A DNA stretch of 64,000 nucleotides. It comes from Alphaproteobacteria bacterium (lineage in GTDB: Bacteria > Pseudomonadota > Alphaproteobacteria > Micavibrionales > SZUA-601). The stretch lies in assembly GCA_965216395.1 (NCBI GenBank), contig OZ244156.1:1096765-1160764 (forward strand), written 5' to 3'. This document shows positions 2,185 through 37,708 of the stretch, one piece after another. Each line of letters opens with the position of its first letter. Positions within the stretch are counted from its first letter, which is position 1. The notes beneath the pieces were generated by a model. That model was given only the letters and a program-made list of their open reading frames with translations, made no database searches and had not been told where the DNA came from. The position numbers were made by a program, and so were the translations under genes.

Positions 2185-3003
2185 TCAAAACAAACTTGGC
2201 TGTAACGCTATTGGTGGGTGAAAAGTTCCAATAATAACATAGGGGTTTCGCGCTCTCCTTATATGCCACTCCCTCGTAGTTCCAAGAAAGAAATAAAGAT
2301 CTTTTTTAAGAGCAAAATCATCAAAATATTTCTCTTTTACTTTTTTAGAAGCGGCATCTGGTGTTGATTTTTTTAAGCAATTCCAATAAAGAGAACCAAC
2401 TTCCCAGTCCTCAATCATCAATGTACTTCTTTCACCAAGATCATCTTCAAATATATACGAGAATTTCTTAGGTAGCTTTGGCATCATTTTAAAGTCTTCT
2501 ATATTCTGATCTTCAAACAGACTGCCCTGCTTTAGTTGACTTAAAATGCCATTTACCTTGTGCTGAGGCCACTCTGGGTCAGCGTCTTCTATTATAAAAT
2601 CAACAATTTTAGATGGCTTAAATACGGCTAATGATATTTTATCTTTATGTGCTAGTGATATTATTTCTTTTTTATTAGTATAAACTTTTGTCTTTTCTAA
2701 AACTATTTTTTTTCTATCTTCCCACTCACGTGATGTACCTATTTTCTGAAGTAGTTTTATTTCTTGAGTATTAGGAACACGATAGCTTTCTGGCCTAGGG
2801 TCCCCCTTATTTTTCTCAACATCCACTTCAATCCATTGATACTTTGAATAGCGTTTATCTTCTTTAAGTAATCTAAAAGGTATTGGATAAAGCCTTATCC
2901 AAGAACCATCCTCTCTAAAGCCTGCCGTACAAGCAAGTTCTTTATACTTTTCTGAGATAGTAGGATAAGTTTTAACGGTAATTAAAACACGTTCTTTTAG
3001 CAT
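2185..3003 (-). CDS. Conserved hypothetical protein (272 aa), middle gene of the three-gene operon
   Basis: Long ORF with no competing frame. It is 14 nt downstream of the DUF488 gene and directly abuts the ZnR-HEPN gene. I could assign no catalytic motif. The N-terminus is LITVKTYPTISEKYKELACTAGFREDGSWIRLYPIPFR. Confidence 0.6.
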   Translation of the reverse strand: MLKERVLITVKTYPTISEKYKELACTAGFREDGSWIRLYPIPFRLLKEDKRYSKYQWIEVDVEKNKGDPRPESYRVPNTQEIKLLQKIGTSREWEDRKKIVLEKTKVYTNKKEIISLAHKDKISLAVFKPSKIVDFIIEDADPEWPQHKVNGILSQLKQGSLFEDQNIEDFKMMPKLPKKFSYIFEDDLGERSTLMIEDWEVGSLYWNCLKKSTPDAASKKVKEKYFDDFALKKDLYFFLGTTREWHIRRARNPYVIIGTFHPPIALQPSLF

Positions 3004-4022: not shown

Positions 4023-7000
4023 TTATATATTCTCTTCAATAAGTTTTATTTCATCAGGAGTGAGGTCAAACACTTTGTAAACAGCGTTGTTTAAATCACT
4101 TTCAATAGAGATAATATTATTTGATAATTCAGAAATTGCTTTGCGTTTTTCAGTAAGATATTCCTCCCATTCATCGCGTTGTTTAAGACTAAGCTCTTTC
4201 TTAAAAACTTTTTTAATCTGTTTTTGAAACTCTTTAAAACTCAACTCCCACCATGATTTCAGACTATTATTGAGTTTGTATTCTGTGTCGTCAGGTGCAA
4301 AATCATGGATACGGTTACGTACTTGTTCTTGCAATTCATAGCGCTTCTCTGCAGCAATTTGGGCATTTTCTGCCAAATTTTCGATATTATTTTTTTGTTT
4401 ATTTGTAGCATTAGGGATAGGTAATTTATTTATATAAACAGGTTTTGCTTCTAAATACCCACCTTGCCTTATAATTGCCATATCCTTTAAAACGAACCAA
4501 AGAACATTTGAATTTAATAAGCCGCATACATAATGGCTTGCTCCTGATAATATAGGAGATGGGGCATTAATATAATATTTCTTGTTGTCATAGGAAAACT
4601 GTGGTTTAGATTGCAAATTCCCCCATATAATTTTGGGCTTTTCAAATTCCGTGTGATATGCAACCGTATCTTGAATTTCATACCATTTGTAAGTCCCTGA
4701 CTTCCTACCTATCCATTTTTTGTCAGTTGGCCAATCTTTAGGTTTGGGCATTAGCCTTTCTTTGTGTTTTTCAAGGTATTCTTTAATTGCTGGATATTTT
4801 TCAATATCTATATTTCTCTTAGTAAAAATTAAATAGAGTTTACGAGGTTCTGAAACCCATTTTTTTAAGTCTTTTCCTTCAAGAAAGGGGTGAATAATAT
4901 CATTCGAATTATGGTCTTTTTCAACCAAATTTTTCTTTACTTGAGATGAAATCAAGAAAACATCATTGCACCCTGTAACAACGCCTCTGTATACCAATGG
5001 ATAAATAGTTTCTAGTTTTTGAGATTTCTTTTGAATTTTATAAATTAGCTCTTTTGTGAGTTCACTTTGCAGATTCCATTGATTTTCGTTAAACCATTCT
5101 TGAGGCATGGTTTTTGAACGTTCATTAAAAAGCTTAGAAATATCGTCCTCTGGTTTTTCAGTTATTTTTAAAAATTCTATTTTATGATCTTTCATCGGTA
5201 TTGCATTATCAATCACAAAGATCGCTGGATAAGTTGTTACACCTTCAAATAACTGCACATCTCCAAAGTCTATAATAGTATCTATCTTTGATTTTTTGCT
5301 TAAATACTTGCGTAAATTTTCTCCACTCCCTGTCTTAAAAAAAGTAGCGGAACTGATATATCCCAAACGCCCGATATTAGGTTTTAATATACGCAAACCG
5401 AGTTCAAAAAAATAACTATATAAATCTGCCACGCCATTATAAACCTCATAGCGTTTTTCAAGATACGGTTTCATAGGAGAAATTAATTCTTGCCGGACGT
5501 AAGGTGGGTTTCCTAATACAACATCAAAACCACCGTCCGCGAAGACATCGGAAAATGCCTCTTTCCATGAAAATGCTTGATAAGAATAGTTAGAGTCTTC
5601 AATCACGCTATCACCAACACGCAAATTATCATCTAAGGAATTTAAAACTTTTCCACGCTGGGCTGTTTTTAACCATAAGGAAAGTTTAGTTATTTCTATA
5701 GACTCAGCGTTTACATCAACACCGTATAGGTTGTTATTTAGTATCTCCTTATTAAGGTCGAATACGTCGCGAGTACCGCCTCGTAAATCCGCAATTCGTT
5801 GATTAACACGTTCATATTCAGCATGAAGGTAATCAAAGGCCGCAACTAAGAATGCACCAGAGCCACATGCAGGGTCAACAACACGAATGTTCTTTAATGT
5901 ATCTTGATATGCTCTCCAAAACTTCAGTTCGGCTGCCTTGGATTTCCATTTAACAAGAGGTTGCCCTACAGTCACACCTGCAGTAAAATATTGCCTGCTC
6001 CCTTTTGTAATAAACTCTACCATTAAAAGATTGCGGCGTTTTTCTATATATTCGCCTAAGGTTTTCTCTACGATAAAACGTGTTATTGAGTTGGGGGTAT
6101 AGACAACACCCTCCTTCTTCTTTTTACCGTCTTTTTTCTTAAGACTTAAATCTCCAAACTCTTTTAATGCCTCTATGTCAGAAATGGATTGCTCAAAAAT
6201 ATGACCTAGTATTGTAACACTAACTTCACTTTGAAAATCATACGCACCAATTTTGTTAAAACCTTGAAAAATGCTATCTGGTAATTTTAAACTATCTATT
6301 ATTTTGTTAGGCGCAAATAAACCGCCATTATATTTGGGTATATTAAGAGATTTGTTTCCCTTATCTATAAAAGTGAAAAGTGCCTTAAAATTTTCCCAAA
6401 TAGGTTTGGGATTGTATTTGTCTTTATGCCTATAAGCTTCGTTCAAACTATCTTCAGGAAGAAGTCCCTTATCTTCAGCAAAAGCAATAAACAAAATACG
6501 ATCTAAAATTAACTGTGCATAGCCAACAGCATCTTGAAATATAATAGTTGGATTATTATCTGTAATTGCATGAATCAGGTTATGGCGAATTACCTTATAA
6601 TCCTGATAAAGGCGATCAGTAATCTCTTTATCCTGTTTTTCAGACTGTTTTAACCACTCATAAGTTTGACCACCAAGCAAATTATCTTTGTTAAGAAGTA
6701 AGTAAAAACGTTTGTACTCTTCTGGTTCACTTAGTAGGTCAAGTGAAAAACGCTCATAATTTTGCCTACCATAACCTACGGCATATAAACGTATTTCCAA
6801 ATAATTAGAAATAATAACCCACTTAGCCCCTTTAGCATCCATAGCATAATCCCATGCTTGTTGCACTGGAGTTTTATTGCGGCCTGACATGATAGCGTCT
6901 AAAGATGTTTTTGCCCCTTTGAGCTCAAATGGTGCAAGACATGAGTTTTTCTCTGGTAAGTTTGGGTCAATAAAACTTCCTAATGCTAGGTCAACACGTG

Positions 7001-7247
7001 TTCCAGCTATTGGGTATTCTACAGCAACATCATAATTGCCTGATGTTGATCCGAATGGTTTATACCCTAATACTTGGGTAACAATATTTTCTGTAAAAAT
7101 ACCATGTAAAGAAGTTTCCTTTTGAAGATAGATACTGCCATCTTTAATTGAGTTGGCCCAATTTTCTAGTATTTTCAAATGACCCGATGGGATTTCTATT
7201 GGCTGTTTAAGTAATTTATTTATTACTTTTGGATGAAAAAGTTCCAT
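4023..7247 (-). CDS. Type IIG restriction-modification enzyme (single-chain PD-(D/E)xK nuclease, gamma-class N6-adenine methyltransferase and TaqI-like specificity domain)
   Basis: 1074 aa. N-terminal VDLALG...APFELKGAK (D...ExK). Methyltransferase motif I VVDPACGSGAFLVAAF and motif IV VLGNPPYV. The C-terminal region with WYEIQD...KIIWGNL is typical of Eco57I/MmeI-like target-recognition domains. Confidence 0.85.
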   Translation of the reverse strand: MELFHPKVINKLLKQPIEIPSGHLKILENWANSIKDGSIYLQKETSLHGIFTENIVTQVLGYKPFGSTSGNYDVAVEYPIAGTRVDLALGSFIDPNLPEKNSCLAPFELKGAKTSLDAIMSGRNKTPVQQAWDYAMDAKGAKWVIISNYLEIRLYAVGYGRQNYERFSLDLLSEPEEYKRFYLLLNKDNLLGGQTYEWLKQSEKQDKEITDRLYQDYKVIRHNLIHAITDNNPTIIFQDAVGYAQLILDRILFIAFAEDKGLLPEDSLNEAYRHKDKYNPKPIWENFKALFTFIDKGNKSLNIPKYNGGLFAPNKIIDSLKLPDSIFQGFNKIGAYDFQSEVSVTILGHIFEQSISDIEALKEFGDLSLKKKDGKKKKEGVVYTPNSITRFIVEKTLGEYIEKRRNLLMVEFITKGSRQYFTAGVTVGQPLVKWKSKAAELKFWRAYQDTLKNIRVVDPACGSGAFLVAAFDYLHAEYERVNQRIADLRGGTRDVFDLNKEILNNNLYGVDVNAESIEITKLSLWLKTAQRGKVLNSLDDNLRVGDSVIEDSNYSYQAFSWKEAFSDVFADGGFDVVLGNPPYVRQELISPMKPYLEKRYEVYNGVADLYSYFFELGLRILKPNIGRLGYISSATFFKTGSGENLRKYLSKKSKIDTIIDFGDVQLFEGVTTYPAIFVIDNAIPMKDHKIEFLKITEKPEDDISKLFNERSKTMPQEWFNENQWNLQSELTKELIYKIQKKSQKLETIYPLVYRGVVTGCNDVFLISSQVKKNLVEKDHNSNDIIHPFLEGKDLKKWVSEPRKLYLIFTKRNIDIEKYPAIKEYLEKHKERLMPKPKDWPTDKKWIGRKSGTYKWYEIQDTVAYHTEFEKPKIIWGNLQSKPQFSYDNKKYYINAPSPILSGASHYVCGLLNSNVLWFVLKDMAIIRQGGYLEAKPVYINKLPIPNATNKQKNNIENLAENAQIAAEKRYELQEQVRNRIHDFAPDDTEYKLNNSLKSWWELSFKEFQKQIKKVFKKELSLKQRDEWEEYLTEKRKAISELSNNIISIESDLNNAVYKVFDLTPDEIKLIEENI

Positions 7248-7318
7248 AATTTTCCTAAAAAATTTTAATATTCCTAAAATAATAAAAGCATTAATCTAGT
7301 AATACTTATATCTATAAT

Positions 7319-9676
7319 TTACGCTGACTTTACTTCTGGCTCCTGTAAAGAAGCACTATCATTAATGGTTTCAGAGTCCTCACCCATCATTTTTTTATAA
7401 TGTTCATGAAATTCAGTTTGTTTAAATACACTTTCAAAATATCCTATGAACTTTTCAACATCAACTTCTTTCAAATCCGTATAATTGACTGCATCAGAAT
7501 ATGATTCTTTATTTACGTACCTTTCAAAAATTGAAAAAACAACATCATCCTCTGTGTCTCTTAATTTTTCAAACGCCTTTGATAACTTATTTTGACAATG
7601 AATAAAGTTAAAATAATGCTCTAGAATATTTCTCATTGCATTCGGTAAAATAACTGGTGATGCTTTATTGTTTTTAACATCTTTAATTACTTGCCAATAG
7701 GATTCATAATTATTTTGAATTTGTGATCTATTTATTTTTTCAATTATAGACCGTTTTCCCTTTATAACTCTATAAGTAGCACATTTTTTACCTAACTCAT
7801 TTCCTGTATTTCTTTCTATTTGAGCAAACATTTCATGTAAAAAATATAAATGATGTGTAAGTACTATAACCTGCCCATAAACTTTATCTTTAGAAAAAAA
7901 GATTTTTTTAATTAGGCAAGAAATATCAAAAACATGGTTAAATGAAAGACTAGATATTGGGTCATCTATTACAATAACACGATCTTCAATTGAAACTTTT
8001 GTATCAGCATCTGTTACCCCCATACAACTCTGAACAAAATACAAAAAAGAGATAAGTGTTTTTTCTCCTTCACTAAGTGAATGAAAAACGTTTTTCCCTG
8101 TATCCGTACGAGTTAATCGATAAAAAGTAATACTATCAATCACCTCTTTTTCAAAAGAAAACCCACTAAGGCCTATTAATTTAAGAGTTTTATCAATCCA
8201 TATTACAGCTTCATCTACATTTTTAGTTTCATTTTGAAACTTTTGAATTATTGCATCTTCACTTTTTAAAACTTCTTCTAATTCTTTGATTTTAAAAATT
8301 AAAGGTTTTTGATCAAAAGTATTTTTTTCTTTAGCAGTGTTGAAATCAGTAATTGTTTTATCAGCTAATTTTCTTATTAAGCACCAAAATTCATTTTTAA
8401 TTTCATCTTTAAATAATTTACTATCTTTGAGTTTATTATTGAAAGCTATATGTTCAGCATTTATAGCTGCAATAGTATTATTAATAAAAGTTATTTTATT
8501 TTCTGTTGAAATTAATTCAACAATAGTATTTGGGGCAGATATTTTTGAATTAATCTTTCTATTATTACTCTCAAGAATAATCCTTAAATTCTTACATTCT
8601 TCTTTTAAATTTTTATTAGACATTAAAATGTCAGAACTATCATAAGAATCTAGTATTACTAGCAAGTCTTCAGCTTTTAAATTGTATGATTTTTCTAAGC
8701 TTTTTAATTGCTCGATTTTAAATTGATATTGAGTATCAATATGAGATTTTATTTTGTCTTTTAAATCAATACTTAAATCCCTATAACAAAAAGGGCAGTC
8801 ATCCGTTTTATCAAGATATTTATCTATCCCTTCATTAAGCCAATTCTCATGCTCTAATTGATCTATTAAACCAGACAAATAGCCATCTTTAGAACTAGCA
8901 ATAATTTCTTTGAAGAGGATATTATTCTCAAATTCAGAAAAGCCTGTTTCTAGTAAAGAGAAAATTTCCTTCTCAGTTGAAGAACCATCAGAAAGTTCTG
9001 CATACTCAACAGCTATACTGTTAATTTTATCTGGTATTTTTTCTATTTCTAATTCATGTATATTAGAGCTAACCACCTTGTCTTTAAATTTTTTTGCAGG
9101 CACGAGGTAACCCGTCATACATTCTTTTAAAGATTGTGTAGTTTCATACATTTTTTTGAATTTATATACTTCATCTATAAGTTTTTTTTCTAATAATTTT
9201 TGTTCTTGACCTAGTGCTAGTAATTTTTCATCAAGTGGTTTTTTTTCTGCTGTGACAACTTCTTTTCGTTGATTGGCTTCTGAAATAGCTTCTATAGCTT
9301 TTTTATTGGTTTCATCCAGAGTAAAAATACCTTTTTGTTTATCTTCAGTATAAAAAGTGTCCTTCACGTAATCTTCATTATAAACCAAAGATTCAAGCGG
9401 TTTTTTAGGGGATGACAAAGTAACATTACAATCTTCATAACCCTCACGGTTTTGATCAGCCAACAGCCTAGAAATTGTTGTTTTCCCAGAACCATTAAGA
9501 CCATAAATAAAATTATATTTTTTAAGTGCTAACGATTCAGGCTCAGTAAAGCTTGTTACTTTTGAAATTGTTATGCTTTTTACTGGGTGTGAAGACGGAA
9601 CAACACTTTGAACCTTAGACTTAATACTTTTTATGACACCCGACATTTCAACCTCTATTATATTATCGTTATACAA
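7319..9676 (-). CDS. RloC/PrrC-family AAA_13 ATPase, putative tRNA anticodon nuclease with a coiled-coil/zinc-hook insert
   Basis: 785 aa. Walker A YGLNGSGKTT. A long Lys/Glu-rich coiled-coil insert carries CPFC (DDCPFCYRDL) near its middle. Walker B VIVIDDPISSLSFNH. The C-terminal LPNAMRNILEHYFNFIH resembles the PrrC/RloC nuclease-domain R..E..H region. It lies immediately upstream of an R-M gene, as prrC and rloC do. Confidence 0.75.
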   Translation of the reverse strand: MYNDNIIEVEMSGVIKSIKSKVQSVVPSSHPVKSITISKVTSFTEPESLALKKYNFIYGLNGSGKTTISRLLADQNREGYEDCNVTLSSPKKPLESLVYNEDYVKDTFYTEDKQKGIFTLDETNKKAIEAISEANQRKEVVTAEKKPLDEKLLALGQEQKLLEKKLIDEVYKFKKMYETTQSLKECMTGYLVPAKKFKDKVVSSNIHELEIEKIPDKINSIAVEYAELSDGSSTEKEIFSLLETGFSEFENNILFKEIIASSKDGYLSGLIDQLEHENWLNEGIDKYLDKTDDCPFCYRDLSIDLKDKIKSHIDTQYQFKIEQLKSLEKSYNLKAEDLLVILDSYDSSDILMSNKNLKEECKNLRIILESNNRKINSKISAPNTIVELISTENKITFINNTIAAINAEHIAFNNKLKDSKLFKDEIKNEFWCLIRKLADKTITDFNTAKEKNTFDQKPLIFKIKELEEVLKSEDAIIQKFQNETKNVDEAVIWIDKTLKLIGLSGFSFEKEVIDSITFYRLTRTDTGKNVFHSLSEGEKTLISFLYFVQSCMGVTDADTKVSIEDRVIVIDDPISSLSFNHVFDISCLIKKIFFSKDKVYGQVIVLTHHLYFLHEMFAQIERNTGNELGKKCATYRVIKGKRSIIEKINRSQIQNNYESYWQVIKDVKNNKASPVILPNAMRNILEHYFNFIHCQNKLSKAFEKLRDTEDDVVFSIFERYVNKESYSDAVNYTDLKEVDVEKFIGYFESVFKQTEFHEHYKKMMGEDSETINDSASLQEPEVKSA

Positions 9677-9806
9677 TAATATTGCTCTTATAAAAAATCA
9701 AACCATATAAAAAGTAGTTTCTGAGCCTAAACTCTTCAATTTTATAAAATATGCATTATTAATCATAAAAGTTTTAAATATTCTTTCCGCTTGCTATCCC
9801 TGCTAA

Positions 9807-9996
9807 CCCAAGCTAACGTTTGGGTGTGAATGCATTCGTGCATTCGCCGGGGCTTTAGAACCCTGCTTTAAGCGGCTGACATCAGCCGCAATGATGTCGT
9901 CTTTCGGTCTTATGACCGGGAGGCGACGGTGTATGTCCAAGCCTTGCGGTTAAAGATCGTCGCGGTTGTCTTAAAGCAACTTCTAAACTCCCGGTC
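9807..9996 (+). ncRNA. Candidate structured RNA or cis-regulatory leader upstream of the GIY-YIG gene
   Basis: GC-rich patch in an AT-rich spacer: I count 33/60 G+C in 9841-9900 versus 12/60 in 9721-9780. Hairpins: CCCAA/TTGGG (9807-9824), GAATGC/GCATTC (9828-9845), GCGGCTG-ACAT-CAGCCGC (9872-9889). Long-range helix GACCGGGAG (9914-9922) with CTCCCGGTC (9988-9996), stacked on GCGACG (9923-9928) with CGTCGC (9958-9963). Confidence 0.35.
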
Positions 9997-10024
9997 ACCA
10001 GGCAAAATGCCTTGGTGACCTTTT
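9993..10024 (+). terminator. Rho-independent terminator or attenuator hairpin directly before the GIY-YIG start codon
   Basis: GGTCACCAGGC-AAAAT-GCCTTGGTGACC (one bulged T) followed by TTTT. Its 5' arm shares GGTC (9993-9996) with the 3' arm of the long-range helix, so the two structures partly exclude each other. SD GAAAGG and the ATG at 10041 follow. Confidence 0.6.
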
Positions 10025-10040
10025 AGTTTGAAAGGCAACC

Positions 10041-10859
10041 ATGATTACACTGGAACAAATTTTAAATTCACAAAGCACAATACTTGAAGATGCTAAAGTC
10101 AAAGTCGTTCGCCATAAAGATAGTCGAACCGAATACCGCGATATTTTAAAAGACCGTGAACAACTGCTTGAATATCAAATGGGGCAGAAAAACCATGTTT
10201 TTAAAGATTGCGATTACATTATTTCTTTTATTGGACTAGAGCGAAAACGATCTCTTTTCATTGGTGTGTTTAAAGTTGGTGATTATAACAAAGCACCAGA
10301 CAATCACCGTTATAATCATTTATATGACTTAACCCCTGTCCCTGAATTTAAACATCTTGAAGATCGGCTTATTATCGATTGGGGCAACAATGCTATTTCT
10401 TGGCATCAGTGGTATGACAAACAACCCAAAGGGGTGATTGAAATTCTGCCCCAAGGATATATTGGCAACTTCCCTGGCCTGCTCAACTTCACCCTTGAAT
10501 TTGATGAACTTAAAAAACTAACCAATAACCCTGATGCTAATTTTGATTGGAAGAACCACCTATCATCGGTCAATGGTGTTTATATGATTTTAGATACTTT
10601 GACAGGACAACAATATATTGGATCAGCTAATGGTAAAAATGGGATTTGGCAAAGATGGTGTGAGTATGCAATTAACTATACAGGTGGTAATAAAGAGCTT
10701 ATCCAATTAATCAAACAAGACGCAAACCATCACAAGAATTTCAGGTTTTCGATTTTACAAACTTTGCCTAGCAACATCACTCAAAAAGAAATTGTTGCCA
10801 TCGAAAATCTTTACAAACAAAAATTAGGCTCAAAAGCGCATGGCTTGAATAACAATTAA
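10041..10859 (+). CDS. GIY-YIG nuclease-domain protein with an uncharacterised N-terminal domain
   Basis: The C-terminal ~90 aa read VNGVYMILDTLTGQQYIGSANGKNGIWQRW...ENLYKQKLG (GIY...YIG...R...E/N pattern). The N-terminal ~180 aa are unassigned. Confidence 0.75.
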   Translation: MITLEQILNSQSTILEDAKVKVVRHKDSRTEYRDILKDREQLLEYQMGQKNHVFKDCDYIISFIGLERKRSLFIGVFKVGDYNKAPDNHRYNHLYDLTPVPEFKHLEDRLIIDWGNNAISWHQWYDKQPKGVIEILPQGYIGNFPGLLNFTLEFDELKKLTNNPDANFDWKNHLSSVNGVYMILDTLTGQQYIGSANGKNGIWQRWCEYAINYTGGNKELIQLIKQDANHHKNFRFSILQTLPSNITQKEIVAIENLYKQKLGSKAHGLNNN

Positions 10860-10943
10860 CGTAAAAGACAACTAAAATACTGATTTCAAAATAATACCAT
10901 TCATTTTTTGATTGACATATCTTAATTATCTGGTATTTCTAAA

Positions 10944-11113
10944 AGTGCCTTGCAGAGTAGCACTTAGGAACCGGTGACAGTCCGGCGCTTGGCCGGTGAA
11001 AGCTTTAAGCGTGGTAGCTTCGTAAACTAACGTCATGTGCACTTCCTTGTGAGTGTCAGCCCGAATAGTCCCGACATTTAAACATTGAAACTTTAATCAA
11101 TGCTAGATGTCGG
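10944..11113 (+). ncRNA. Second GC-rich structured segment, upstream of the ParB-methyltransferase gene
   Basis: Hairpins AGTGC/GCACT (10944-10964), CCGGC/GCCGG (10982-10996), AAGCT/AGCTT (11000-11020), CCGACAT/ATGTCGG (11071-11113). It shares the 10-mer GCTTTAAGCG (11002-11011) with the first segment (9865-9874). A possible TTGACA -35 box lies just upstream, at about 10911. Confidence 0.25.
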
Positions 11114-12501: not shown

Positions 12502-12883
12502 TAATGACAATAACGACGATTATGACGTTGGCTACGGTAAGCCACCCAAAAACACGCGCTTTGGTGCAAAGGATGGCAATCCAAGAAATCAAAAAGGACG
12601 ACCAAAAATACCAAACACTTTGGAAGAAGAAGCTCAGGCTGTTTTTAAAGCAAAAATAGGCATCACTCTTAATGGCAGGAAGACCAAAATTTCAAGGCGT
12701 CAGGCACTCATGGAAGTAATTGTTAATGGCGCCATTAACGGTGATGCACGCATGATGCGCCTAGCCATCCCGTTGTCCAAACTCGCTGACAACGCTCCTG
12801 AGATGGAAGTCCTCCCTGAAGATGAGATGGCACTCAAACGCTTATTAGAAAACATGAGCGATAATGGTGATGGTCATGAATAA
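12494..12883 (+). CDS. DUF5681-type small basic protein (terminase small-subunit-like)
   Basis: The ATG at 12494 overlaps the upstream stop (ATGAGTAA). VGYGKPPKNTRFGAKDGNPRNQKGRPK is the hallmark N-terminus of DUF5681 proteins, which sit upstream of terL in alphaproteobacterial phage-like elements. Confidence 0.55.
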   Translation: MSNNDNNDDYDVGYGKPPKNTRFGAKDGNPRNQKGRPKIPNTLEEEAQAVFKAKIGITLNGRKTKISRRQALMEVIVNGAINGDARMMRLAIPLSKLADNAPEMEVLPEDEMALKRLLENMSDNGDGHE

Positions 12884-14000
12884 TATTACAAACATTATCG
12901 ATATGTACCGCTATGATTTTCGAAGTTATATTGGTTTTTCTTATCGTACGCTACACCCCTATGAGCATCTTCAAGATAATTGGCACATTGATCTCTTAGC
13001 CGGTCATATCGAAGCGCTTGTTAAAAATGGAGAAAAACGACTTATTATTAATCTACCGCCACGCACACTCAAATCACATTGTGTGAGCGTGGCATTGACC
13101 ACATGGCTCTTGGGGCGTGATCCATCAACAAAAATTCTCTGTCTTCATGGCAGTGATGTTTTAGGACGCGATCTGCATGATGCTTCCAGACAACTTATGA
13201 TGCATCCAAGATACCGCGCCCTGTTTCCAGGAACAGTCATTCATGATAACAATAGAAAGATTCAAACGACATTTGGTGGTAAACGATTATTTTTACCCTT
13301 CATGAAAAATCTAACGGGGCTTGGCGCTGATTATATCATCATTGATGATCCCATCAGTGCAACAGATGCTCAAAATGATTCAATGCGCGATGCTGTTAAC
13401 AGACAGTTTGACCGTAATATTATTCAGCGCCTGAATCATAAATCATCTGGTATTATTATCGTTGTGATGCAACGCCTACATGAGCATGATCTGACAGGGC
13501 ACTTGCTGAGTAAGAAAATAGGCTTTCACCATCTCAATATTCCAGCTATTGCCATGGAAGACACAATTTGGAAATTGCCTCATAACAAAACCTATCAATG
13601 GCGTAAGGGTGAAGCGCTTCATAAAACACGCGAACCGCGCGAAGAACTTATCAAGACGCTACACTTAATTGGTGGATATGCTTTTGCTCATCAATATTTA
13701 CAAGGGTTATATAAGCCACATTTTGGCGAAAATGAGAAAGGTGCAATCTGGTTAAGCCCAGCGCGTGAGGGAGAATTTTATGATTTTCGAACCAATACCA
13801 ATCCACATGGATTTTATCATATTAGTGAAGAACATCTGATCACAGCAAAAGTGTTTGGTATTGGCGAAGACCCCTATCCTGATAATATGCGCTATAAACT
13901 AACCTTGGAAGAAGTTCTCGAACAAGCTAGGCTTCATCGTGAAAAACACCTTGAAGAAGAACGATTACGAATTGAGGCAGAAAACAAAGAATCTGGTTAA
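12864..14000 (+). CDS. Terminase large-subunit-like ATPase that appears to lack the C-terminal nuclease domain
   Basis: Walker A-like LPPRTLKS and Walker B DYIIIDDP, then VVMQRLHEHDLTGHLL and AHQYLQG, as in TerL ATPase domains. It is only 378 aa and ends in a charged coiled-coil tail (EEERLRIEAENKESG), not an RNase H-like nuclease fold. Confidence 0.65.
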   Translation: MVMVMNNITNIIDMYRYDFRSYIGFSYRTLHPYEHLQDNWHIDLLAGHIEALVKNGEKRLIINLPPRTLKSHCVSVALTTWLLGRDPSTKILCLHGSDVLGRDLHDASRQLMMHPRYRALFPGTVIHDNNRKIQTTFGGKRLFLPFMKNLTGLGADYIIIDDPISATDAQNDSMRDAVNRQFDRNIIQRLNHKSSGIIIVVMQRLHEHDLTGHLLSKKIGFHHLNIPAIAMEDTIWKLPHNKTYQWRKGEALHKTREPREELIKTLHLIGGYAFAHQYLQGLYKPHFGENEKGAIWLSPAREGEFYDFRTNTNPHGFYHISEEHLITAKVFGIGEDPYPDNMRYKLTLEEVLEQARLHREKHLEEERLRIEAENKESG

Positions 14001-14005
14001 ATTGA

Positions 14006-14563
14006 TTGGACTTCCCCCTCAAGGTAAGCGTTACTGTTGGTGTTGCAACAACGAGAGACACTATCATGCCAAGACAATATTTGAACATTTCAACAGCCCC
14101 CCTATATAAAGTCAGCGATATCCCCGTCGATAAGGCGCTCAAACAGATTAAGAAGCTTCAAGGTCAACCACTGCGCCAAACTTATATTAAGATCTGCGGC
14201 CAAGACGGTGTTCTTCGGGTCAAGAATAATAAAGATTTACTACAAAGGCGCCTCTATCAAAATGTTCAAAAACGCCATTTGGGCGGCTTATCAACTAAAC
14301 ATTACAATACACTCTATCGCCTTGTGAGAGACACCTCTCCTGACCGGAAACCCTCTGTTAAAAATAAGTATAACCTATCAGAAGGGTCTGTTTTAAAACG
14401 CACATGGCAAGAACGTGAACATCAGGTTCGCGTTACTGATAAGGGCTTTAATTATCAGGGGCAAACCTACGTTTCACTTAGTCGCATTGCTAAAATCATT
14501 ACAGGTCATGAGCGCTCTGGCCCGGCTTTTTTTGGGCTTAAACAACGCGAGCAAGCATCATGA
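14006..14563 (+). CDS. DUF2924-domain protein (recombinase-associated)
   Basis: The C-terminal GSVLKRTWQEREHQVRVTDKGFNYQGQTYVSLSRIAKIITGHERSGPAFFGL fits the DUF2924 pattern. It overlaps the serine recombinase start by 4 nt. The true start may be the ATG at 14066. Confidence 0.6.
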   Translation: MDFPLKVSVTVGVATTRDTIMPRQYLNISTAPLYKVSDIPVDKALKQIKKLQGQPLRQTYIKICGQDGVLRVKNNKDLLQRRLYQNVQKRHLGGLSTKHYNTLYRLVRDTSPDRKPSVKNKYNLSEGSVLKRTWQEREHQVRVTDKGFNYQGQTYVSLSRIAKIITGHERSGPAFFGLKQREQAS

Positions 14564-16269
14564 CGGCAGAAAACAAAAAATTACGCTGCGCGGTCTACAC
14601 CCGCAAATCAAGCGAAGAAGGTTTAGATCAGGAATTCAATTCACTTGATGCACAGCGCATTGCTGGGGAAGCATATATCCAAAGCCAACAGCATGAAGGC
14701 TGGACGCTTGTTAAAACCGCATATGACGATGGTGGATATAGCGGCGGCAATATCGAACGACCCGGATTAAAAAAGCTTATCTCTGATATTAAACAGCGCA
14801 AGGTTGATGTTGTGGTGGTTTACAAAATTGATCGCCTCACCCGTTCCCTGATGGATTTTTCGAGAATTGTTGAAATCTTTGACGCATACAATGTCAGCTT
14901 TGTTAGCGTCACGCAAAGTTTTAACACCACGACCTCTATGGGACGACTAACACTCAACGTCCTGCTCTCCTTTGCCCAGTTTGAACGTGAAGTCACCGGT
15001 GAGCGTATTCGCGATAAAATCAAAGCGAGCAAGCAAAAAGGAATTTGGATGGGCGGTCGCCCTCCCTTTGGTTACGATGTTGTCAATCGCAAGCTCATTA
15101 TTAATGAAAAAGAAGCCGAACAAATACATTATATATATGAGCAATATTTAAAGAAAAACTCCTGTCATAAAATATTAGTTGATCTGAACACGAAAGGCAT
15201 CACTCAAAAATCTTGGGTCACGCAAAAAGGCAAAGCCATCACTGGCAAGCCGTTTACAACCACTACCATCTACAATCTTCTTAAAAATCCGATTTATCTG
15301 GGTAAACTCAAATATAAAGACAATATATATGATGGTGAGCATAACCCCATTATTGATCAAGATATCTGGGACAAGGTTCAGAGTAAATTGAAAAGCAGGG
15401 CTGCTAATAAGAATGGGCGCAAAAATAAAGTAGCGCCTTTTTTATTAAAAGGAAAAATCTTTGATGACGCGGGGCGCAAATATTCAACCACATACACGTC
15501 TAAAACACGAAATGGTATTAGGAAATACACACGCTACTATGTCATGCTCAAAGAAGCCAAAAAAGGCTATGTCATCAACACTCCACGCTATATTAATGCT
15601 GATGAAATCAAAGAGATTACTCACTCTCTTTTGACAGCTTGTTTAAAAGATGAACTAAGACTTCAAAAACAATGGCACGGCGTTAGTCCTAAACAGCGCG
15701 ATCAACTCTTGAAGAAAGCTATTGTCAGAGTAATGATCAGCAAGGACCAGATCAGAGCTGAGTTTGATAAAGTACAGGTCAAGCGTATTATCAATAAATA
15801 CAAAAAACAGGATATTGCTTTTATTGAGAATGCCAGAGCTAGAAAAAGAACAGTATCAAACATTGATGTTATTGATACTGAGACAAATATGTCTTGTGTT
15901 CTCAACTATGCTTACAAATCCTATAAAGGAAAAAAGATCATTACTGACACATTAGGGCGTGATATTACTGCTCATAAAACAAACAAGAACTCTGATCTGA
16001 TCAGCGCGCTTGTCACCGCCCATCAATGTCATGAACATCTCAAGAAAGGCTCAATAACAAGCATCAAAAAGCTCTCAGAAAAAATGAAACGAGACCCCTC
16101 TTACATTAGTAAAATCATCAAGCTGTATTCTCTATCGCCTAAGATCAAGGCAACCATTCTCGATGGCAATCAGCCTCGCACCACAACTGTGCAATCTCTG
16201 ATTAAAATCAGTCGGCACATTGATTGGAAAAAGCAGGAGGGCTTATTTGGGTTGATATCAAAAGCATAA
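14560..16269 (+). CDS. Large serine recombinase (resolvase/invertase N-domain, recombinase domain and Zn-ribbon/coiled-coil)
   Basis: LRCAVYTRKSSEEGLDQEFNSLDAQR (catalytic Ser region), VVVVYKIDRLTRS, FAQFEREVTGERIRD; 569 aa. Confidence 0.9.
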   Translation: MTAENKKLRCAVYTRKSSEEGLDQEFNSLDAQRIAGEAYIQSQQHEGWTLVKTAYDDGGYSGGNIERPGLKKLISDIKQRKVDVVVVYKIDRLTRSLMDFSRIVEIFDAYNVSFVSVTQSFNTTTSMGRLTLNVLLSFAQFEREVTGERIRDKIKASKQKGIWMGGRPPFGYDVVNRKLIINEKEAEQIHYIYEQYLKKNSCHKILVDLNTKGITQKSWVTQKGKAITGKPFTTTTIYNLLKNPIYLGKLKYKDNIYDGEHNPIIDQDIWDKVQSKLKSRAANKNGRKNKVAPFLLKGKIFDDAGRKYSTTYTSKTRNGIRKYTRYYVMLKEAKKGYVINTPRYINADEIKEITHSLLTACLKDELRLQKQWHGVSPKQRDQLLKKAIVRVMISKDQIRAEFDKVQVKRIINKYKKQDIAFIENARARKRTVSNIDVIDTETNMSCVLNYAYKSYKGKKIITDTLGRDITAHKTNKNSDLISALVTAHQCHEHLKKGSITSIKKLSEKMKRDPSYISKIIKLYSLSPKIKATILDGNQPRTTTVQSLIKISRHIDWKKQEGLFGLISKA

Positions 16270-21213: not shown

Positions 21214-21289
21214 TGGTGGAGCTGAGCGGGCTCGAACCGCCGACCTCTTCGCTGCCAGCGAAGCGCTCTCCCAGCTGAGCTACAGCCCC
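21214..21289 (-). tRNA. tRNA-Ala (anticodon GGC)
   Basis: Reverse complement: GGGGCTGTAGCTCAGCTGGGAGAGCGCTTCGCTGGCAGCGAAGAGGTCGGCGGTTCGAGCCCGCTCAGCTCCACCA. It folds as a cloverleaf with G3:U70, anticodon loop CTGGCAG and an encoded CCA. Confidence 0.95.
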
Positions 21290-37632: not shown

Positions 37633-37708
37633 GCCCTGATAGCTCAGTTGGTAGAGCAAACGACTGAAAATCGTTGTGTCGGCAGTTCAAGTCTGCCTCG
37701 GGGCACCA
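37633..37708 (+). tRNA. tRNA-Phe (anticodon GAA)
   Basis: GCCCTGATAGCTCAGTTGGTAGAGCAAACGACTGAAAATCGTTGTGTCGGCAGTTCAAGTCTGCCTCGGGGCACCA. It folds as a cloverleaf with anticodon loop CTGAAAA and an encoded CCA, followed by a T-run. Confidence 0.95.

Follow-up and report, generated by a model that had tools for sequence, protein, structure and literature searches.

What kind of element occupies the G+C-rich spacer in front of the GIY-YIG nuclease gene uzuA in an alphaproteobacterium of the order Micavibrionales (lineage SZUA-601) is the question raised by the locus examined here. The window, meaning the whole 64,000-nucleotide (nt) stretch that was analysed, comprises positions 1,096,765 to 1,160,764 of the forward strand of contig OZ244156.1 (assembly GCA_965216395.1), and coordinates given below are window positions unless a locus name precedes them. 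A first-pass annotation made from the letters alone had described a highly structured region at 9785-10040 with the layout of a riboswitch or attenuator, or else of a small RNA (sRNA) with its own terminator. That interpretation is supported by the present analysis, in which a conserved plus-strand RNA was found whose closing helix, P1, competes with an intrinsic terminator, with a further segment, the A strand, as a third competitor that completes a four-segment attenuator layout; a switch acting in cis and a stand-alone or processed sRNA both stay in play. Judged from sequence comparison, the conserved architecture and the swapping segments argue for a portable sensor or attenuator placed before mobile-element cargo, which here is the nuclease of the Uzume defence system. 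The extended architecture of about 200 nt and the exchange of pairing partners appear to be new, the 3' three-way junction having been known before as sRNA-Xcc1.

Architecture and partner exchange of the RNA

The spacer that holds the element is bounded by a divergent AAA_13/PDC-S06 gene on the minus strand (7319-9676) and by a gene of 272 codons (10041-10859). The G+C-rich patch noticed earlier was recovered, with values of 0.52-0.56 over 9800-9999 compared with 0.22-0.27 over 9600-9799. Strong structure was likewise evident: over 9780-10040 the plus strand reaches a folding energy of -116 kcal/mol (z = -8.7; none of 200 shuffled sequences folded as well), while the minus strand of the same interval folds less well (z = -6.0). 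Pair counts from the alignment of homologues show frequent G.U pairs on the plus strand, supporting this as the RNA strand. The whole structured RNA, from its inferred start to the end of the terminator U-tract, spans 9826-10024 and scores 216 bits with R1, a covariance model of 203 positions built solely from copies linked to uzuA. For the analysis of base-pairing, 101 hits were aligned to a model of nested helices only, from which the pseudoknot helices PK1, PK2 and S1 were absent, and pairs were then counted including the helices outside the model. Overall, 92.7% of cells are paired (67 pairs, 100 homologues), compared with 40-46% when the partners are slid, and 59 of the 67 pairs show compensatory change, the covariation score being 0.449 as opposed to 0.05-0.07 for slid partners.

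The nine-base-pair helix previously proposed to close a three-way junction (9914-9922 with 9988-9996, here P1) is 98.8% paired in 100 distinct homologues, with compensatory changes in six of nine pairs. Its 5' strand (GACCGGGAG, 9914-9922) is referred to as segment B and its 3' strand (CUCCCGGUC, 9988-9996) as segment C; pair counts and concerted variation indicate that the last four nt of C, GGUC, also serve as the base of the terminator. The helix described as stacked upon it (9923-9928 with 9958-9963) is present too, lengthens to eight base pairs (9923-9930 with 9956-9963) and is 97.9% paired with seven of eight pairs compensatory, such that covariation is seen in both of the helices first singled out. 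This helix forms the base of the P3 arm (9923-9963; 97.9%/99% paired), which also comprises an internal loop, GUAUGUCCAA opposite UAAAG, and an apical hairpin (9941-9943 with 9948-9950). The third helix of the junction is the P4 hairpin at 9964-9981, with a core of 9965-9968 paired with 9977-9980 (98.7% paired, four of four pairs compensatory). The invariance of CCGGG within P1 is in part an artefact of collection, since part of the P1 5' strand lay in the pattern used for the wider search described below, and the P3 loop motif TATGTCCAR...AAAR is itself that search pattern, so that its conservation in the collected set is no evidence.

The region had been described as three local hairpins plus a three-way junction. 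The junction stands, but the 5' half proved to be a docking domain with pseudoknots as opposed to a set of independent hairpins. Indeed, the first hairpin of the span, at approximately 9802-9825 in the minimum free energy fold, is unconserved and overlaps a conserved promoter-like block. The conserved RNA instead opens with hairpin P0 (9828-9845; 9828-9834 with 9839-9845), which is 91.7% paired with all seven pairs compensatory, followed by hairpin P2 (9849-9864), in which GGGG (9849-9852) pairs with CCCU (9861-9864) across an eight-nt loop, CUUUAGAA. P2 is 98.5% paired and each of its four pairs shows at least one two-sided change (G-C to A-U), with variants GAGG/CCUC and GGAG/CUCC in relatives, the variation being mostly of the one-sided G-C/G-U kind. 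A long-range alternative called by RNAalifold, GGGG (9849-9852) with UCCC (9989-9992), showed no covariation and was replaced by local P2 plus PK1.

PK1 is formed by the P2 loop (UUUAGAA, 9854-9860) and a junction strand directly 5' of the P1 3' strand (UUCUAAA, 9981-9987). It is 93.2% paired, and each of its three central pairs occurs as three to four pair types in roughly equal numbers; the contiguity of its 3' strand with that of P1 suggests that the two helices can stack. PK2 links CUUUAAG (9866-9872) to the P4 loop (9970-9976) and is 73-88% paired with seven of seven pairs compensatory. A further H-type pseudoknot, S1/S2 (9873-9898), is found only in the subtype of the family that carries the A strand; here S2 (9878-9884 with 9892-9898) is 92.4% paired with six of seven pairs compensatory, and S1 (9873-9876 with 9885-9888) is 82.5% paired with two of four. 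Comparison of the homologues shows a P1-P3-P4 three-way-junction core that is locked by PK1 and PK2 from the 5' domain. The PK1 and PK2 strands are hypervariable with strict compensation even where close relatives are otherwise nearly identical, as with TTTAGAA and CTTTAAG in the window versus TTTATAA and CACGTAG in locus L061; one possible reason would be selection for private pairing where a single cell holds several copies.

A putative promoter lies at 9791-9819, with a -35 element TTGCTA (9791-9796; consensus in relatives TTGATA) and a -10-like element GCTAACGT (9812-9819). The block is kept as GTTGATAC...AGCTAAYGT in 14 of 16 relatives and resembles the alphaproteobacterial TTGAC-N-GCTANAWC promoter type. 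A simple scan for E. coli-type promoters did not call it. From the position of this putative promoter, transcription probably starts near 9826. At the other end, a terminator scan recovered the intrinsic terminator described earlier (9993-10024; stem 9993-10003 with 10009-10020, then UUUU), which shares GGUC (9993-9996) with P1. The U-tract runs to 10024 and leaves 16 nt in front of the uzuA start codon (10041), a space that is too short for a separate promoter. The full terminator stem is worth -20.0 kcal/mol; without its four basal pairs it is worth -9.0 kcal/mol and sits four nt from the U-tract. The basal pair of the stem (294:360) covaries, being UA in 26 and CG in 24 cases.

Fifty of the 101 aligned sequences, the window among them, possess an A strand and are designated subtype A. 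In the window this strand (GUCUUUCGGUC, 9899-9909) pairs with B, here 9914-9924, as a U.G-rich hairpin that is proposed to act as an anti-antiterminator. Between 9 and 11 of the 11 positions can pair in 48 of the 50 subtype-A sequences, with zero to four G.U pairs in each, and across the alignment designated A5 the A:B helix is 83.8% paired compared with 98.8% for P1. The terminal GGUC of C can pair either with B or with the 3' arm of the terminator, and the four segments A, B, C and terminator 3' arm vary in concert, as U/A/U/A in 15 sequences, C/G/C/G in seven and A/U/G/C in three. A terminator overlapping P1 by three to six nt is present in 33 of the 50 sequences with an A strand, whereas a terminator-like hairpin of any kind is found in only 4 of 37 sequences lacking one. 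Calculated without tertiary contacts, the two states differ little in energy, at -68.0 kcal/mol for A:B with the full terminator and -63.0 kcal/mol for P1 with the truncated terminator. These in silico comparisons show the helices, their mutual exclusivity and their co-occurrence; how folding is ordered, how termination is affected and that an effector takes part are inferred.

An identical core is paired with differing 3' platforms across the family. In the GC-rich sequences without an A strand (subtype B), a CCGGC-UUCG-GCCGG hairpin competes for the P1 3' strand, and hairpins holding Shine-Dalgarno-like sequences are also present, such that in subtype B this core seems to be joined to a platform of the translational kind. 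Attenuation by a leader peptide in the manner of trp was considered and rejected: the AUGs at 9830 and 9891 are unconserved in relatives, which have no conserved short open reading frame (ORF), and variation follows base-pairing and not codons.

Relation to sRNA-Xcc1 and distribution of the family

No match to the element was obtained from Rfam at gathering threshold. In a relaxed search, 9914-10004 matched the full 87-nt model of RF02221, sRNA-Xcc1 (positions 1-87), with 36.3 bits against a gathering threshold of 53 (E = 1e-4), and the earlier remark that no known riboswitch class could be matched has to be amended by this weak hit. The sole extra match at E <= 10 over 9600-10150 was a meaningless one to HgcG. 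Other members of the window family (L083-L085 and L087) also lacked a gathering-threshold match to RF02221. Nevertheless, the two RNAs have in common a three-way junction with a nine-base-pair P1 and two arms, with P1, P3 and P4 98-99% paired and compensatory. They differ in the P3 loop, which is GUAUGUCCA in the window element and AUACAAUA in sRNA-Xcc1, the latter form being carried by relatives found via UzuA as well as by true Xcc1 copies, and in extent, since the window unit of about 200 nt includes a 5' docking domain, the A strand and a separate terminator overlapping P1, none of which is in the RF02221 model.

Four bona fide RF02221 loci (L210-L213), belonging to Neisseria, Aeromonas and plasmids of Nitratidesulfovibrio and Pseudomonas, reach 69-73 bits with the Rfam model. 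R1 detected every one of them with E-values of 1e-5 to 1e-10, three of the four over its full length. The P2 and PK1 pairings were found upstream of the annotated sRNA at these loci, with the S1/S2 pseudoknot in Neisseria. Because the R1 match and the upstream pairings recur at bona fide loci, RF02221 represents just the three-way junction at the 3' end of a longer RNA, and the window RNA is, on the strength of these sequence comparisons, a divergent, extended and sub-threshold member of the sRNA-Xcc1 family.

In Xanthomonas campestris, sRNA-Xcc1 was described as an 88-nt species giving a single Northern band of about 100 nt, with predicted targets in trans (PMC2996969). The integron cassette found most widely in Xanthomonas has it in front of symE, according to a preprint that suggests a regulatory link to symE, and APSE phages have it upstream of an ORF6N gene. 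Xylella transcribes seven sRNA-Xcc1 copies, of which five form a tandem series on a genomic island, and in another Xylella strain one copy lies beside C4 antisense and IsrK RNAs (PMC12189769). No description of a larger architecture or of a switch was found in the literature searched, where sRNA-Xcc1 is treated as a trans-acting sRNA. In common with sRNA-Xcc1, the window element sits just upstream of mobile-element cargo, that of sRNA-Xcc1 and the family including symE, ORF6N and BRO.

The possibility that the RNA is tied to its GIY-YIG neighbour was not borne out. Homologues of UzuA number in the hundreds, and 80 uzuA loci were taken from the genomes fetched; the element is upstream of uzuA in 16 of these (single-sequence and profile nhmmer, later the covariance model), and the same searches detected no copy in the remaining 64. 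The 16 loci belong to Micavibrio-like, Pseudobdellovibrionaceae-labelled, Rickettsiales-labelled and other alphaproteobacterial metagenome-assembled genomes and to one from Magnetococcales. The element directly adjoins uzuA, as in the window, in nine of them. In the other seven (L002-L006, L011 and L061), a gene of some 140-200 codons, with an N-terminal signal and a lipobox-type cysteine in its product, intervenes between the terminator of the RNA and uzuA (at approximately 2400-3000), the RNA keeping the 5' end of the operon; in L011 it encodes a 199-residue lipoprotein-like protein. The inserted gene overlaps the start of uzuA and its product is without a Pfam match. In that lineage the protein may be a passenger or else a further component of Uzume.

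A locus lacking the RNA, L009, encodes an UzuA that is 68% identical and has the same downstream synteny. In its place, at L009 2689-3000, are a divergent gene for a 76-residue XRE-type helix-turn-helix protein and a promoter-like block, TTGATG-N14-GCTAATCC, about 40 nt before uzuA, so that protein-based control appears to replace RNA-based control. Since 64 loci, the syntenic L009 among them, lack the RNA, UzuA can do without it and the RNA would be an exchangeable regulatory module.

A wider search was conducted with a pattern derived from the core, CCGGGNGGC-N6-7-TATGTCCAR-N7-12-AAAR. It matched eight stretches of viral contigs, all of which proved on inspection to be full-length homologues, and at least 120 metagenome stretches. 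With the 17 copies that came from UzuA loci, more than 140 copies are known in total, most of them before genes unrelated to uzuA. Searches with blastn of the element gave no match in phage genomes or in E. coli genomes, and one weak match among plasmids, upstream of a HEPN gene. Among 119 copies with enough flanking sequence, 69% have downstream, on their own strand, an ORF that is equipped with a Shine-Dalgarno sequence and begins 45-135 nt beyond the core, compared with 24% for random positions, and the distance to the ORF start has a sharp peak at 80-110 nt. The downstream proteins themselves are diverse, with 126 proteins falling into 82 clusters, 63 of which are singletons. They include ECF sigma factors, UzuA, a 54-residue membrane peptide, small secreted proteins, lipoproteins and giant RCC1/RHS proteins, and further GmrSD, DUF4268, DUF805, Rha/ORF6C, BRO and an NTase-HEPN fusion. 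A search of 2504 flanking ORFs for a possible RNA-binding partner gave no protein family that accompanies the element throughout.

Two-copy tandem arrays, with the copies 130 nt to approximately 3.9 kb apart, occur in six loci (L099 5881-6401, L100 5334-5649, L097 1499-2081, L104 5348-5853, L094 3329-7411 and L210 2356-2799), and in L094 each copy precedes its own ORF. The arrays echo the five tandem sRNA-Xcc1 copies of Xylella, which suggests cassette-like duplication or capture.

Possible functions of the RNA

The reading favoured here, with a probability of roughly one half, is that the element is a portable, riboswitch-like leader that attenuates transcription in cis and consists of promoter, sensor RNA and terminator, placed before mobile-element cargo, in this case uzuA. 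During transcription, A would capture B first. If an effector, be it a small molecule, a protein or an RNA, then stabilised the folded core, the nascent C would displace A and form P1, stacked on PK1 and P3. With P1 formed, the terminator would lose the four basal pairs next to its U-tract and polymerase would read into uzuA, as in an ON-type switch; otherwise A:B would stay, the full terminator would form and an RNA of about 200 nt would be released. In the GC-rich relatives without an A strand and terminator, competition of the P1 3' strand with a hairpin near the ribosome-binding site would amount to a translational version. The co-occurrence of the A strand with the terminator counts in favour of such a switch, and the XRE-type regulator that stands in place of the RNA at L009 fits an exchangeable regulatory module.

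A cis-acting leader of this kind would resemble transcriptional riboswitches and four-segment attenuators (trp-type, T-box and the fluoride and ZTP ON-switches) in having a pseudoknotted, sensor-like core 5' of genes, a P1 that shares bases with the terminator, an upstream strand that competes for P1, and branches that vary the platform. Unlike those systems, the window family is without a known ligand and without a conserved leader peptide, and its cargo is heterogeneous and does not belong to one pathway. Several points weigh against the cis-acting leader. There is no known ligand or effector and none is inferable, and the heterogeneity of the downstream genes (82 clusters among 126) is unlike that of classical metabolite riboswitches. 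The overlap between P1 and the terminator is only four nt, and hence both could partly coexist. Moreover, several true Xcc1 copies, and the Rfam consensus, have a U-run directly after P1, in which case P1 itself could be the terminator, with the opposite logic. The accumulation of the homologous Xanthomonas junction as a discrete 88-nt sRNA (PMC2996969) fits an RNA product at least equally well. The sample is skewed towards one branch of the family, since most sequences were collected via a pattern inside P1 and P3, and support for the switch comes from in silico comparison.

It is possible, if less probable than the cis-acting leader, that the functional product is an sRNA, terminated and perhaps cut at 9913/9914, feasibly by RNase P, to leave a three-way junction of about 90-110 nt like sRNA-Xcc1. 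The targets of such an RNA would lie in trans, or else in the mRNA made by read-through from it, in the style of C4 and IsrK, with the downstream gene expressed by incidental read-through. The Northern signal in Xanthomonas and the transcribed Xylella copies noted above, one of them beside C4 and IsrK, speak for a product of this type, and the mapped sRNA-Xcc1 appears to begin at the P1 5' strand, because that is where the 87-nt RF02221 model starts. C4 (phages P1 and P7; RF01695, c4-a1b1) and IsrK (Gifsy-1) resemble this family in being structured leader RNAs before antirepressor-type prophage genes, and members of the family do precede BRO, ORF6N and Rha genes of the antirepressor type. As in C4, two short upstream segments pair with the body of the RNA, PK1 and PK2 resembling the pairs of C4 a1 and b1 with a' and b', and CCA comes directly after a pseudo-acceptor stem: P1 is succeeded by NCCA (ACCA in the window, 9997-10000) in most of the 50 sequences of subtype A, even though the remaining terminator stem varies freely. 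The C4 precursor is a substrate of RNase P; to see the window RNA as tRNA-like or as a further substrate of this enzyme, from P1 as a pseudo-acceptor stem and an Xcc1 5' end at the start of P1, would be speculation by analogy. On the other hand, the window RNA is larger than C4 and has a different fold, and no Rfam covariance match to the C4 families was obtained at E <= 10 in 9600-10150. Copies of the a1 segment near the downstream ribosome-binding site, at a mean of 5.17 of 7 positions compared with 4.94 +/- 0.06 on permutation, and of b1, at 5.00 compared with 4.93 +/- 0.08 (not significant), are not clearly present, and C4-like antisense control of the RNA's own ribosome-binding site was not favoured, the enrichment of target copies being unconvincing. 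A trans-acting sRNA would, in addition, leave the A strand, its co-occurrence with the terminator and the tight, oriented coupling to an ORF unexplained. The cis-acting leader and the sRNA can nevertheless coexist.

Two further explanations are each very improbable. The order of RNA, terminator and nuclease gene at the window locus mirrors that of the type III toxin-antitoxin system toxIN (toxI, terminator, toxN), which likewise has a promoter, a structured RNA, an intrinsic terminator and a nuclease gene dependent on read-through, and the RNA might by that token be a dedicated partner of UzuA, either a type III-like antitoxin or a cofactor or guide of the GIY-YIG nuclease. Its presence at 17 uzuA loci and the position of other copies before toxin-like genes (HEPN, symE) would be in keeping with this. 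However, tandem direct repeats are lacking in the window RNA, where only an eight-nt sequence repeated twice inside P0 and a single R1 match in the window were found; the partner gene is not constant across the family, most copies preceding unrelated, non-toxic genes (ECF sigma factors, lipoproteins, DUF805); and a lipoprotein gene separates the RNA from uzuA in seven loci. Together with the 64 of 80 uzuA loci without the RNA, the syntenic L009 included, and the varied downstream genes, this led to the rejection of a UzuA-specific cofactor or antitoxin. Similarly, the multi-copy and sometimes tandem occurrence of the element, and its presence in integron cassettes, plasmids, prophages and genomic islands, could suggest a DNA-level element or selfish repeat, such as a relative of attC, a replication or packaging signal or something like a miniature inverted-repeat transposable element, in which RNA structure is incidental. 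That is difficult to reconcile with compensatory changes that keep nested helices and three pseudoknots, with G.U pairs frequent on one strand only, with a conserved promoter-like block and terminator, or with fixed orientation and spacing relative to the next ORF. Furthermore, terminal inverted repeats were not noticed in the element, and the Xanthomonas copy seems to lie inside the cassette with symE and not at the junction where attC would lie.

Should the cis-acting leader be borne out, what has for 15 years been annotated as a virulence sRNA working in trans, sRNA-Xcc1, would turn out to be the stable core of a cis-regulatory RNA of far greater extent, and a portable cassette of promoter, sensor and terminator would keep costly or toxic mobile-element cargo, Uzume included, silent until a signal arrives. 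A bolder version, offered tentatively, is that the family makes up a class of sensor RNA not recognised before, either a riboswitch or an attenuator that responds to a factor, with "sRNA-Xcc1" as no more than its 3' fragment, and acts as a portable gate opened by one shared cellular or infection signal; the gated cargo would include nucleases and toxins (Uzume, GmrSD, HEPN, SymE), antirepressors and ECF sigma factors on prophages, plasmids, integrons and defence islands. With more than 140 richly covarying copies, three pseudoknots and two kinds of expression platform, the family is a good orphan candidate for the discovery of a ligand or factor. Even if a processed sRNA is all that the RNA amounts to, its extended architecture and the exchange among four segments provide concrete, testable hypotheses.

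The uzuA gene and its surroundings

The gene downstream of the RNA, uzuA (10041-10859, 272 residues), is preceded by a Shine-Dalgarno-like AAGG at 10032-10035, both being on the plus strand and assigned from the ORF list, Pfam and PADLOC. Its product is UzuA of the Uzume anti-phage defence system (PADLOC PDLC03973, 3.3e-93, residues 1-272). The GIY-YIG assignment of the first-pass annotation was confirmed in this form, the C-terminal GIY-YIG domain (residues 178-264) scoring 20.8 bits with PF01541, slightly under the cut-off of 22.6. Uzume is listed as a single-gene GIY-YIG defence system, and no description of its activation mechanism was found in the literature searched.

Divergent from the RNA, on the minus strand at 4023-9676, are genes for the 785-residue AAA_13/PDC-S06 ATPase (PADLOC 4e-202, with weak similarity to PrrC) and a 1074-residue type IIG restriction-modification enzyme. 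The same place is taken in L011 by an AIPR-like gene, and the position upstream of the RNA is a variable defence hotspot. On the 3' side of uzuA are genes for a ParB-methyltransferase, a small-terminase-like protein and a truncated large terminase, beyond which a serine recombinase is encoded. The upstream defence genes and downstream phage-type genes together indicate a defence island that borders a phage-derived region. Within 12864-16269, the large-terminase ORF (378 residues) matches only the N-terminal part of terminase profiles and is followed by a 185-residue ORF and then by a 569-residue large serine recombinase. It seems that the packaging gene has been interrupted or has decayed, and the neighbouring "phage" may therefore be a remnant or a carrier of an insertion.

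Two minus-strand ORFs within the element (9803-9940 and 9910-10038) were treated as spurious because the covariation is of the RNA type. The interval from uzuA to the ParB-methyltransferase gene holds a second GC-rich patch (10930-11085, 0.43-0.52 G+C). This patch was rejected as a second copy or structured RNA, having no R1 match, no Rfam match and z = +1.5. Its conservation, seen at the corresponding place in L001, L003, L008, L009 and L011, is confined to the sequence, and the patch may serve the phage-derived module at the DNA level, for instance as a promoter, operator or packaging site. Finally, two tRNA genes, at 21217-21289 (minus strand) and 37633-37705 (plus strand), are the sole gathering-threshold Rfam matches in the 64-kb window.

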